Source: Escherichia phage S127 BCL3. Taken from it: 64,000 nt of DNA. Each line of letters starts with the position of its first letter. Position 1 is the stretch's first letter. Location of the stretch: sequence record OQ626344; one strand, written 5' to 3'. This document shows, piece after piece, positions 11,103 through 13,661 of the stretch. Both the position numbers and the translations under genes were made by a program. The notes under the pieces were generated by a model. It was not told the origin of the DNA. It ran no database searches and worked only from the letters and a program-made list of their open reading frames with translations.

Positions 11103-12253
11103 CACACAAGCCTGCTTTGCAGGTTTAGCTGCTCAGCTAAGGTTCTGGCGGCACCTATAACATCTTCCAACTAAATTTCCTACCAACACAGTTACTTACC
11201 CACCACACATGACTGTTTGCTTGTTTAGTGAGCAGTCATCCCTTGACATTCTTGCCTATCTTGATAAAATTAAGTTCTTCTCTTTTCTTTTACCGAGTAA
11301 TTCGGGTTTTCTGTTCTCTTCGGTTTGAAGGGGTATGGAGATACACCTGAGTGAACAGGGTGAACAACCGAACCTTTAGCTATGGCATTAGCATGGCGAA
11401 GCGGACGGGTGACGAAAGAGGGGCCGGAGGACACCAGTCACTGCCATATAGTATATGGGTGATAACCTGAAGAGTCTGAATAAGTGTTTAAGTACCAGTC
11501 AGAGGAAAAGGTGAATGGTAGCCGAAGGGGGAGGGGGGTTTCTTATATCTTTAATTTGTATACTTTATATACACTTGTAAACCAATTCAATTAGGATCTG
11601 TTTACCACACAAAGTGGATGGAGACAAATATCACCTATTAAACTTGAATTATTTATAGAAAATACCACAACACCACTTAAGTATTTGATTTTACACACAA
11701 ATCTTACAAATATCCTACCTCCATATTTAACATACTTGTAACATATCCCATATCCTACCTGCCTGGTCAATTTACTCCCACCACATCCCCACATTTTCCC
11801 TGTCTGTACTACCCCACCCCCGCCGGGAGTCCCGTCATATCTGGCTTCCCAGCAAATATCACACCCACAAATATCATCACCTGAAGAGGGTTTCATCCCA
11901 TAATACACACCTTGCCTGAAGAGCGCTTCATACACCACCTAAATTTTTTAATTGACCCCTCCCCGCCGCCGGAGAGGTTGGCTTTTCCCACACAGGCCTG
12001 AAGAGTCAGCCAGAAATATCTGAACAGGTCCAGTTATACCCCGATTTTGTGCTTGTCCTACAGGAGTGCTGCCCTGTCAGGAGCCGGTAGCGACTGGAGT
12101 GCTGCCAGGCGGACGGAATGGGAATACTTCTCATTTTTATAATAATTCTCAAATATCGAGGCAGTGAGGCAAATTAATAGGCCAGGCCGTTCACACAGTG
12201 GCACAACATTTGCAATCTATCTTGTGGGAGTGAATGAGAATACCTATCATTGT

Positions 12254-12272
12254 GAGAATGGTTATCATTACG
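12254..12272. promoter_or_regulatory. Fur-box-like palindrome
   Basis: GAGAATGGTTATCATTACG, about 14/19 to Fur consensus GATAATGATAATCATTATC. Confidence 0.3.
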
Positions 12273-12542
12273 GGCAATTTAACATAATACCCATTATGCG
12301 CACCACTGGCGATACATACAGGGATTGATAACATGGGTTACTGTTTACGCATATAACAATTATATTTCTTACTATTTGTGTGGGATATAGTTAGCAACCA
12401 ATAGATTAGATATTGACCTGCGGACTTCTGACCGTCCAGACGTCTAAACGCCCACACAGCAAGGATTATACATACATTTCTGAATGTAAACAAGGCCGCA
12501 AAAATGCTACCATACCAGTTTGTAAATTTTTCATGCAGCACT

Positions 12543-12625
12543 TGACAAAGAGGAGAAAAACTTGTCTGACACAATGTGACAAAATTACCACTTTTGACAC
12601 TTTTACCTTTGACGCAATATGACAC
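12543..12625. repeat. cluster of six TGACA(C) direct repeats at 10-18 bp spacing
   Basis: read directly; iteron-like phasing. Confidence 0.5.
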
Positions 12626-12655
12626 AATAACGGCTGTTACTATTCCATATCTCAC

Positions 12656-12694
12656 TGTTTACGCATAGGCTGTTTACGCCTGAACAGTTTACAC
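12656..12694. repeat. three tandem CTGTTTACRC 9-mers (further copies near 12341, 13157, 13201; inverted near 13095)
   Basis: read directly. Confidence 0.5.
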
Positions 12695-12711
12695 AGAGAT
12701 GATAAGCCATG

Positions 12712-12732
12712 CCATTCGTTTGCATGAAAACA
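12712..12732. repeat. 20-bp direct repeat GCCATGCCATTCGTTTGCAT, copy 1
   Basis: exact second copy at 12980-12999. Confidence 0.6.
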
Positions 12733-12808
12733 ATTAACAAGCTAACAATTAACAAGTTAATAATCTTTCGCTGGCTATGCCAGGTGACTAGGTCACCCCT
12801 TCGGGCGT

Positions 12809-13010
12809 TTCTATGACATAATATAAAAGCAGGGCAACTATTAGAAGATCTATAGTTGCCTTGCTTGTTATGTCATGATTAACTAAATACAAGGCAACTA
12901 TGATCTGAGTAATAGATTGCAGAAAAACTATCACGGGGGTGATGGTTACTGCTTTTATATTATGTCGCGACTCCGTCGCGCCATGCCATTCGTTTGCATA
13001 GTTGCCTTAT
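12809..13010. repeat. GGCAACTAT/ATAGTTGCC direct and inverted repeats within an imperfect palindrome
   Basis: four copies in alternating orientation. Confidence 0.45.
12980..12999. repeat. 20-bp direct repeat GCCATGCCATTCGTTTGCAT, copy 2
   Basis: exact match to 12712-12731. Confidence 0.6.
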
Positions 13011-13607
13011 TGTTACAGGTAAAACAATTACATTATTAATTATTTCTTATCTTTCTCTTAGTCATCTAATGATTCCAGTCAGTATAGTAATGTACAGTAA
13101 ACATTAGACGACTAAAGATTTCTCTGTTTATGATAACTCATCGTGATAATTTCGGACTGTTTACGAAAAATGTTGACACCTGAGCTGATTTATGTTATGC
13201 AGTTTACACGAATAATTATTTTATGCAGGTATTGACTATTCCGTTATTCTGTGGTTGGAATAAATACTTTGCAGACTATAGAATGGCGTTCGTACGTGAA
13301 TTCTGAGATCTGTCGGCTATAGTTATACTCGATTTTTCGCGTAGAACACGCTTTCGATGCTGTGTAAGTGTATGACTTATAAAGATTTTTAGTTGTTGAC
13401 AAGATATTGGAGATATGCATCAGGTTAAAATTTGTGCAATAGCTGCATTACGTGCACTTTTGGGAGAGAAAACGGGTAAAAATGGACTTGCTACCACACA
13501 ATGAAAAATTATGCAATAGTTATTTTCCATGTATATTTGTACAGTATGTGGGATTGATAGCTAGTCAATTATTCCACTTGCCAGGTAGGGCCGTTTATGG
13601 TAGGAGA

Positions 13608-13643
13608 AGAGCAGACAAAAAGAAAGGGGCCTTTAAGCCCCTT
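13608..13643 (-). terminator. rho-independent terminator ending minus-strand block
   Basis: GGGGC...GCCCC stem; plus-strand A-tract upstream gives U-tract on minus strand. Confidence 0.55.
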
Positions 13644-13661
13644 GATAATTCAGTTAAGAAA

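Follow-up and report, generated by a model that had tools for sequence, protein, structure and literature searches.

In the sequence of bacteriophage T7 the terminal repeat (TR) occupies positions 1–160 and is followed, from 15 nt past it, by at least 12 CCTAAAG units with a 13-nt period (175–341); dispersed ACCTAAAG and CCTAAGG units precede the right TR, the promoter φOR reads outward from 549 nt before that repeat, and φOL follows the left array. Processing of T7 concatemers requires duplication of the TR and is reported to involve a hairpin intermediate of the DNA (see the summary in PMC4281155); in that part of the T7 literature which was consulted here, the junction is also described as carrying a T7 RNA polymerase terminator or transcription pause. 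Among phages closer to the present one, Korf (2019) gave terminal redundancies of 458 bp for EdH4 and HdK5, and the Mydovirus KPP-1 has a 514-bp direct terminal repeat (DTR) which was found by doubled coverage and PhageTerm and was called T7-type (PMC9862379). Here we analyse a stretch of 64,000 nt ("the window") from Escherichia phage S127 BCL3 (record OQ626344), and in particular the gene-free gap at 11103–13660. An earlier note, made from the letters alone, had described this gap as packed with several independent iteron families and had offered, among other options, a packaging site or a genome terminus joined in assembly. We conclude that it is the T7-type genome-terminus (concatemer-junction) region of Vequintavirus, and place the probability of that statement as a whole, with the roles proposed below for its elements, at about 0.75; the location of the terminal repeat and of the ends is, taken by itself, very probable.

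By its sequence the window belongs to Vequintavirus (rV5-like myoviruses of about 137 kb infecting E. coli), since 121 phage records, nearly all of that genus, match the flagged region at 90–98% identity over its entire length. The gap measures about 2.5 kb between the last plus-strand gene (stop at 11102) and the first minus-strand gene (13662–14081), and both gene blocks are transcribed toward the genome ends. In the rV5 genome paper of 2013 (PMC3606486) it appears as a grey box marked "non-coding"; the authors of that paper took the genome to be circularly permuted, expected bidirectional terminators in the gap and found none, failed to locate the origin, and saw a skew switch at this place.

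A sensitive search for record ends within the gap returned at least seven records from several laboratories which end or begin at one of two places, positions 1006 and 1464 of the query. Phages bov10K2, bov22_2, HdK5 and ECP2309 begin at the former, Gotham and ECP2303 end at the latter, Pr121LW starts there on the other strand, and most of these records show a second match at their opposite end. Comparison with related phages had been proposed as a check in the earlier note; it puts the record ends at 12108 and 12566 of the window, exact bases being confirmed by BLAST for two phages, Gotham and HdK5, which both start at 12108 (GGCGGACGG...) and finish at 12566 (...AAAAACTTGTC). The Gotham record (MT682716) annotates a repeat_region at 1–459 and at 136567–137025, both copies of which map to 12108–12566, and together with the redundancies reported by Korf (2019) this places the repeat at both physical ends of fixed, non-permuted genomes. 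In the window the 459-bp sequence occurs once, between two unique flanks, as is expected when an assembler joins the two ends. The left physical end reads ...GCTGCCA/GGCGGACGG and the right one ...AAAAACTTGTC/TGACAC. Positions 12108–12566 are a single assembled copy of a 459-bp DTR whose edges are the physical ends of virion DNA in relatives, and of the options offered earlier the terminus joined in assembly is the one borne out. In the virion, the sequence to the left of the DTR through 12566 is the right end, and 12108–13660 is the left end. The identity of the region is in this sense already known for relatives, though it is unannotated in most records.

The decimal identity values used here are averages relative to the window, taken from its alignment with 13 relatives. 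That of the DTR is 0.94, with edge sequences that are identical, as against 0.51–0.61 in its two hypervariable flanks (0.61 in the 57 nt which precede it). The DTR of KPP-1 lies in the same sort of gene-poor gap between convergent gene blocks, and PVP-SE1 has a gene-free gap of this kind (2.2 kb). The KPP-1 gap shows no blastn similarity to that of the window, yet islands of motifs follow in the same order: CCTGAAG-N-GTCAGCC; AAATATCA repeats, which in KPP-1 stand just before and also inside the DTR; two direct repeats before the left DTR end; the left end itself (G-N-CGGACRG); AATGAGAAT inside the DTR; and, at the right end, TTTGTAAATTT...CTTGACAAGGAG...TTGTG. When the window, KPP-1 and the Seunavirus KE22 are aligned, the DTR is homologous in all three genera, with islands at both ends and in the middle. 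The edge motifs common to Mydovirus and Seunavirus are AGRCGGACRG on the left and TTTGTAAATTT...CTTGACA-N-RGAG...TTGTS on the right; CTTGACA-N-RGAG is found exactly once in the gene-free gap of the window, of KPP-1 and of six Seunavirus phages, and in KPP-1 it ends at the DTR end mapped by PhageTerm. The repeat described here has the same sequence and edges as those of Gotham and HdK5, and is homologous to, and in the same genomic position as, that of KPP-1. In the portions consulted, the reports on Gotham, HdK5/EdH4 and KPP-1 give only the length or the position of the repeat and do not link it to the rV5 "non-coding" box, the arrays, the hairpin or the promoter block. The coordinates of all these features are collected in Table 1.

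Table 1. Features of the terminus region of phage S127 BCL3, in window coordinates
Feature	Position	Strand	Remarks
Direct terminal repeat, single assembled copy, 459 bp	12108–12566		Record ends and annotation of relatives
Branched hairpin, 152 nt	12815–12966	+	Fold z = -10.0 to -10.7; covariance-model match
TGACAY array, period ~10 nt, directly after DTR	12567–12625	+	Complement contains GTGTC; 0/200 shuffles
YTGTTTACRC x3, tandem, period 15 nt	12655–12694	+	Identity 0.511 in 13 relatives
Predicted sigma-70 promoter TTGACA-16-TG-n-TAAAAT (extended -10), toward DTR	11243–11270	+	Predicted start ~11277
Almost invariant non-coding block	11277–11545	+	Identity 0.978 over 13 relatives vs 0.883 in adjacent gene
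Right-end motif CTTGACAAAGAGGAGAAAAACTTGTC, preceded by TTTGTAAATTT	12541–12566	+	Single occurrence per gap
DTR island most conserved across genera, TTAACATAATACCCATTATGCGCACCAC	12279–12306		Three-genus alignment
Tandem 18-nt repeat TGAGAATNNNTATCATTR x2, inside DTR	12235–12270	+	Annotated as repeat_region in navn and Alma
ACWGGAGTGCTGCC x2, direct, 33 nt apart, abutting left DTR edge	12060–12106	+	Copies at 12060 and 12093
CCTGAAGAG, four of five copies, upstream of DTR	11466–12005	+	11466, 11880, 11915, 11997; fifth at 10806
AAATATCA x3 and ATATCCTACC x2, C-rich stretch	11626–11877	+	11626, 11854, 11869; 11710, 11750
20-bp direct repeat GCCATGCCATTCGTTTGCAT, copy 1	12706–12725	+	Exact; identity 0.992 in relatives
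20-bp direct repeat, copy 2 (12980–12999), overlapping fourth GGCAACTAT copy (12998–13006, minus orientation)	12980–13006	+	Identity 0.973
Intrinsic terminator of minus-strand gene block, right limit of gap	13624–13643	-	8-bp stem, 5 GC pairs, T-tract

The layout of promoter, dispersed heptamers, DTR, tight arrays and hairpin may be regarded as a close functional analogue of the T7 ends without sequence homology. In common with T7 are a short exact DTR with fixed ends in a gene-free setting, an array of short units which starts a few bases past the repeat (periods of 10 and 15 nt at 12567–12694, as compared with 13 nt in T7), a promoter reading outward to the right repeat, and related dispersed heptamers before it. 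T7 CCTAAAGAGGGT (L049 800–811) and window CCTGAAGAGGGT (11880–11891), which stand at equivalent places, differ at one position, and this likeness may be coincidence or a shared signal. The differences are that the present phage is a 137-kb myovirus using the host RNA polymerase, that its repeat is three times longer, and that both gene blocks converge on the ends whereas in T7 the early genes start at the left end. To our knowledge T7 has no counterpart to a covarying hairpin of 152–230 nt or to an invariant block of 270 nt.

For each of the seven motif families tested in the gap, the local clustering exceeds that of all 200 shuffles made with dinucleotide composition preserved. The TGACA cluster, previously counted as six TGACA(C) copies at 12543–12625, is real and consists of five TGACA units (12543, 12567, 12577, 12595 and 12620) plus one TGACG (12609). 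Five TGACA[ACT] fall within 100 nt, against a maximum of three in 200 dinucleotide shuffles; since TGACAC is not enriched window-wide (32 matches vs 35.6 expected), the signal is one of local clustering. Every Vequintavirus relative carries the TGACAY array from the first base after the DTR, with differing copy number (identity 0.527), and it is followed by a YTRTTYACRY array with a period of about 15 nt and from about two to more than 10 units. The CTGTTTACRC family, reported as six copies between 12341 and 13201, was recovered as three exact copies (12341, 12655 and 12670) and three with one mismatch (12685, 13157 and 13200). The 20-bp direct repeat is likewise exact, the first copy starting at 12706 and not at 12712 as had been given, and the AAATATCA and ATATCCTACC repeats noted at 11625–11880 were located as three and two copies. 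Two further families had escaped the first reading. One is the ACWGGAGTGCTGCC pair, of which the proximal copy is present in 13 of 13 relatives and the distal part is variable; at the equivalent place KPP-1 has two different direct repeats 27 nt apart. The other is CCTGAAGAG, with seven occurrences in the window (0.6 expected), five of them within 1.3 kb (10806–12005) and all in plus orientation (0/200 shuffles). The repeat families are conserved as families, and not in copy number or exact sequence. Their description as several independent iteron families does not survive: GGCAACTAT is the stem of a hairpin, the supposed Fur site is a tandem repeat of the DTR, and close relatives differ widely in how many array units they carry.

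In Seunavirus and Mydovirus the CCTGAAGAG heptamer forms the loop or stem of terminator-like hairpins and itself overlaps a promoter-like TTGACC-17-TATNNT site. Some of the hairpins with the CCTGAAG heptamer, GGGAGCC-TGAAGW-GGCTCC-TTTTCTTTT for example, are clearly intrinsic terminators. The heptamer is also part of GGGTTGACCTGAAGWGTCAGCCCTGYTATNNT, for which both a promoter and a terminator-like hairpin are predicted. Because it scores both ways, and TTGACC-17-TATNNT is ambiguous in the same manner, no conserved outward promoter is claimed for these genera.

The hairpin begins 249 nt past the DTR end and 274 nt past the start of the right-end motif (257–428 nt in other genera). Its outer stem consists of 18 perfect base pairs (12815–12832 with 12949–12966), its long arm is made of GGCAACTAT/ATAGTTGCC copies, and with a small inner hairpin (12926–12947) it adopts a three-way fold, with a z-score of -10.0 to -10.7 whether calculated as DNA or RNA and for either strand. 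The alternating GGCAACTAT copies observed previously at 12832–13010 are indeed four, at 12833(+), 12852(-), 12893(+) and 12998(-), where 0.43 are expected. At the counterpart position, the Mydovirus and Seunavirus phages examined have a perfect inverted repeat of 17–21 nt with an interior of 164–194 nt. Across 11 distinct sequences from these two genera the 52 predicted pairs are 99.6% paired, nine of them with compensatory double substitutions and none broken; none of 500 shuffles reaches the observed covariation, and pairing falls to 21–50% when partners are slid by 1–3 columns. Pairing in the two genera is in other words kept by compensatory substitutions. A covariance model (R1) built solely from these Mydovirus and Seunavirus sequences gives a full-length match at 12812–12969(+) with 21.2 bits (E ~4e-4 by a rough calibration), the best in 6 kb, which with the shared position identifies the window hairpin as a member of the family; this match is lost under default filters, so the homology is distant. 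The same model matches the Henunavirus copy at 114 bits. Within Vequintavirus, where the identity of the hairpin is 0.97, variation affects 8 of the 36 unpaired positions but just 5 of the 116 paired ones, and pairing is kept in four of the latter. A search of IMG/VR with the 16-mer core of the hairpin gave 19 loci, 11 of which were chance matches in coding DNA and were discarded.

All the wobble pairs of the hairpin are G.U on the plus strand and none is A.C, and R1 scores the plus strand above the minus strand (114 vs 45 bits in Henunavirus, 21 vs 14 bits in the window). This points to a form in which the plus strand is single-stranded, as RNA or single-stranded DNA alike. Single-strand initiation signals that are strand-specific and made of several hairpins are known from the complementary-strand origin of G4 and the minus-strand origin of M13. 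The present element resembles them in being a multi-hairpin structure of some 150–200 nt in which pairing is conserved over sequence and G.T wobble is confined to one strand; it differs in having no sequence similarity to them and in adjoining the terminal repeat of a large double-stranded DNA phage.

Each outer arm of the hairpin is, on its own strand, the T-rich tail (CTGCTTTTATATTATGTC) behind a terminator-like hairpin. On the plus strand the hairpin at 12926–12947 is followed by ACTGCTTTTAT, and on the minus strand that at 12866–12827 is followed by the tail CTGCTTTTATATTATGTC, the reverse complement of the left outer arm (12832–12815). A G+C hairpin with a T-tract is thus found on each strand, giving two predicted intrinsic terminators face to face, of which the minus-strand one was annotated by two groups in Murica and Alma (mapped to 12829–12869). 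The counterpart tails in other genera are poor T-tracts, so that termination alone does not account for the conservation of the outer stem. A weak promoter-like TTGAAA-17-TATTTT, conserved in Mydovirus and Seunavirus (L018 4421–4449, L019 2253–2281), overlaps a 10-nt palindrome (AAATAGTTAC...GTAACTATTT); this site is about 115 nt past the DTR end and points into the branched hairpin, and the window has no clear equivalent.

On the other side of the DTR, the promoter at 11243–11270, which the first reading had passed over, is the best promoter match in 10500–14500 (11/12 plus TG), and both hexamers and the TG are kept in the 13 relatives (block identity 0.946). The promoter that had been proposed at 13173 does contain TTGACA but is weak: no acceptable -10 hexamer goes with it, and it is not among the sites which the promoter scan reported. 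Downstream of 11243–11270 the plus strand of the invariant block is purine- and G-rich and ends in G5AG6 (11527–11538), followed by a stretch of 78% A+T. Positions 11226–11560 (335 nt, promoter included) are 96.5–100% identical in about 117 records, all of Vequintavirus, and the block is absent from the other genera. No codon-position bias and no Rfam, E. coli or plasmid homolog was found for it. A stable RNA fold was rejected, its fold being no more stable than shuffles (z = -1.26), and the block is too invariant for a covariation test. Judged by its sequence it is under strong non-coding constraint, and is a candidate for an early RNA or a transcription-activated origin. For the hairpin no Rfam family match and no describing paper was found, and both it and the block appear to be undescribed so far; for either one, function is a matter of inference.

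A mechanism can be proposed, for which the roles of arrays, hairpin and promoter in packaging and replication are drawn by analogy and held at somewhat less than even odds. T7-type replication would yield concatemers with one DTR copy per junction, and terminase would cut at both conserved edges with duplication of the repeat, so that every packaged genome bears the repeat at its left and its right end. The TGACAY and YTGTTTACRC arrays at the right edge and the direct repeats at the left may be cis-acting signals for end processing or priming, and so the counterparts of the CCTAAAG arrays which adjoin the repeat in T7. The branched hairpin, about 250 nt past the DTR, would act as a single-stranded structure of the plus strand. 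It might fold back or serve for priming when the end is duplicated or replicated, or it might, as an RNA or terminator structure, shield the end from transcription. The promoter at 11243 would drive host RNA polymerase through the invariant block toward the junction, as φOR does in T7. It is a bolder and, in our estimate, unlikely proposal that the hairpin represents a new class of cis-acting element for making or replicating the ends of Vequintavirinae, and the block a new early non-coding RNA or R-loop origin specific to Vequintavirus; the hairpin could then be a fold-back or priming structure of single-stranded DNA or the 3' portion of an RNA transcribed across the junction.

A somewhat less doubtful alternative makes the gap a non-coding RNA locus. 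The promoter at 11243 would produce an early RNA from the invariant block, regulatory or serving as R-loop primer, G-rich up to G5AG6 and then facing A+T-rich DNA; the hairpin might also be a plus-strand RNA, and a transcript running from the promoter across the junction to the hairpin would be completed only on joined genomes. It is in favour of this that the strongest promoter in the gap is conserved, that the block is more conserved than the neighbouring genes and lacks a coding signature, and that the hairpin covaries, has its wobble pairs and higher model scores on the plus strand, and includes a plus-strand terminator-like hairpin. However, the block does not fold better than shuffles, has no Rfam match and is missing from other genera; a small terminator-like hairpin at 11293–11305, 17 nt past the predicted start, could stop most transcripts; G.T wobble is equally compatible with single-stranded DNA; and a loosely framed search of the Vequintavirus transcriptome literature yielded nothing relevant.

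T7 has secondary origins at φOL and φOR, near its genome ends. A replication origin by the left end of the present genome, with the arrays and the TGACAYAAT-like outer arms of the hairpin as iterons for a phage initiator and the hairpin and A+T-rich 13020–13140 as unwinding region, would be compatible with a terminus; as an explanation we consider it quite unlikely. The direct repeats are clustered, the array and the two hairpin arms share the GACAYAATA unit, which is inverted in the arms, and CCACGATWACGCGAACGA recurs within and just after the element in other genera; the failure of the rV5 authors to find the origin and the skew switch that they saw at the gap may be added. The region does resemble lambda ori and plasmid oriV in that its direct repeats are clustered, inverted repeats are present and A+T-rich DNA lies nearby (here at 11550–11600 and 13020–13140). 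Their iterons, however, are of 17–22 bp, whereas the unit cores here are of 6–10 bp and shift in number and sequence between phages that are 90–95% identical; no initiator gene is adjacent; the matches to DnaA boxes are weak (no perfect box, and seven one-mismatch sites vs 3.2 expected); and the skew switches at the place where transcription changes direction.

The primase of T7, gp4, recognizes TGGTC, GGGTC and GTGTC, and TGACAC on the plus strand is GTGTC on the minus strand. The array might therefore be a cluster of primase sites which, at the DTR edge, sets the last primer on the minus-strand template and leaves a single-stranded DTR tail for the formation of concatemers. Within 60 nt GTGTC occurs three times and ATGTC several times, and the T7 array itself holds GACCAGACC three times together with GACCC and GACAC, the complements of TGGTC, GGGTC and GTGTC. 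The sites counted here are those of the T7 enzyme. Genes for a primase-helicase of the gp4 type and for a DNA polymerase of family A are present in rV5 (PMC3606486). Many relatives carry TGACAT in place of TGACAC, the YTGTTTACRC array is without GTC, and the left DTR edge has no matching cluster on the other strand, all of which renders this explanation improbable.

It is less probable again that a regulator of the host or the phage, such as Fur at 12235–12272, binds in the gap and controls transcription close to the ends. The Fur-like sequence noted at 12254 is present; it is in fact part of the 18-nt tandem TGAGAATNNNTATCATTR, and the best match to the Fur consensus (GATAATGATAATCATTATC), at 12254–12272 on the minus strand, fits at 15 of 19 positions. 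The AATGAGAAT-type motifs do recur within the KPP-1 DTR, but the window contains 66 Fur-like sites at no more than six mismatches, the site is not positionally conserved in the three-genus alignment, and no regulated gene lies downstream of it. In KPP-1 the look-alike palindrome is a stem which changes its sequence by compensatory substitution, and as a Fur box the site is a weak match only.

A headful pac or a cohesive-end (cos) site, the packaging site of the earlier note, is hardly credible, for while older papers call rV5-like genomes circularly permuted and there is one headful call by PhageTerm, neither permuted nor short cohesive ends agree with the fixed ends which at least seven genomes, deposited independently, have in common, a 459-bp duplex repeat annotated at both ends in relatives, and read data which make KPP-1 T7-type (PMC9862379).

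The T7-type terminus is our preferred reading, and several points weigh against it. The ends of S127 BCL3 are deduced from relatives and not from its own reads. Circular permutation is stated in the papers on rV5, PVP-SE1 and PhiTE, and the headful call, with partial permutation, was made by PhageTerm in a 2026 paper on a close relative of ECP32. In the assembly of Shigella phage CM1 (L015 1625–2670) there is an exact 523-bp tandem duplication from the equivalent of 12108 to about 12625, past the TGACA array and including all of 12567–12625; either both ends were assembled with a redundancy greater than 459 bp or the duplication is real, and the position of the right edge may vary from phage to phage or be less well defined than is supposed here. 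The variability of the arrays makes a strict requirement for sequence or copy number unlikely. Lastly, the hairpin of the window itself, with one G.U pair, holds almost no strand information. A long region of phage I29 (L028 927–2066) was discarded as evidence on the ends: it has an unrelated 546-bp direct duplication, joined via a 60-nt inverted piece and spanning the left of the DTR and its first ~217 nt, which looks like a fold-back assembly artefact or a terminus rearrangement.

With respect to coding content, no gene is annotated in the ~2.5-kb gap in the curated records of relatives. The absence of any credible open reading frame (ORF), as first noted, was upheld when 16 candidates were tested for integrity and codon-position bias. 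None of the 16 has a third-codon-position bias, and most are broken somewhere among the 13 relatives, those mostly intact being four short ones within the invariant block and one within the DTR (11/14); in a control gene (10887–11102) 33 of 47 variable sites are at the third codon position. Conserved coding sequence in relatives, the finding which the earlier note had named as fatal to its view, was looked for in the same 13 phages and no coding signature appeared, and coding sequence in the gap was rejected. No tRNA was detected in the region, nor any match to Rfam 15 at E up to 1 in 9000–16000 of the window or in the KPP-1, PVP-SE1 and Henunavirus loci.

The pseudo-ToxI RNA of PhiTE was also rejected as a model: the PhiTE/CB7 locus lies beside a tRNA and structural and terminase genes and not in a terminus gap, and in place of 36-nt tandem repeats the periods here are 10, 15 and 18 nt, with no Rfam match. 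A ToxI-like 36-nt repeat (two repeats as query) was found at 80–100% identity in 200 phage records, 163 of them of Klebsiella phages and some outside Vequintavirinae; repeats that mimic an antitoxin may thus occur in phages far beyond the example of PhiTE. Captured host sequence was rejected, as there is no match to the E. coli chromosome and the sole "plasmid" match is a phage genome. This record, CP057073.1 of PLSDB (137,565 bp, the size of a Vequintavirus genome), matches 11226–11620 of the window at 95.4% over its positions 4608–5002 and is probably a phage genome deposited as a plasmid. Nineteen UNVERIFIED, unannotated "Campylobacter phage" records (MG0656xx, e.g. MG065655.1 and MG065690.1), classified as Vequintavirus, are 87–92% identical to 11125–13660, and their host label looks doubtful.

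The flanking genes encode small hypothetical proteins, and a search of IMG/VR with them gave four loci only. The terminator which limits the gap on the right is also annotated in Murica, Alma, Gotham and HdK5. The first minus-strand gene beyond it (13662–14081, 139 aa) is intact in 8 of 14 aligned relatives, the others having a different gene of 87 aa, and its counterpart bears a "Rel homology domain" remark by the Murica annotators. Just upstream of this gene is a predicted near-consensus sigma-70 promoter (14130–14158, minus strand; TTGACA-17-TATATT with TG), from which it may be expressed on its own. GC skew changes sign near 10–11, 24–25, 51 and 58 kb, where the coding strand appears to switch; because the two coincide, skew is, as the rV5 authors had remarked, unable to locate an origin.

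Most of the ~120 deposited Vequintavirus genomes, that of the type phage rV5 included, are laid out as if circularly permuted, with the gap left blank or filled with spurious small ORFs. That the ends lie in this gap matters for the orientation and annotation of these genomes, for rebooting or engineering therapeutic and biocontrol phages from synthetic DNA, and for the interpretation of transduction risk. The covarying hairpin and the invariant block are parts worth following up, and with their graded series of genera these large myoviruses, which use the host RNA polymerase, are a tractable model for a question long open in T7, namely what the repeat arrays and hairpins beside the terminal repeat do.

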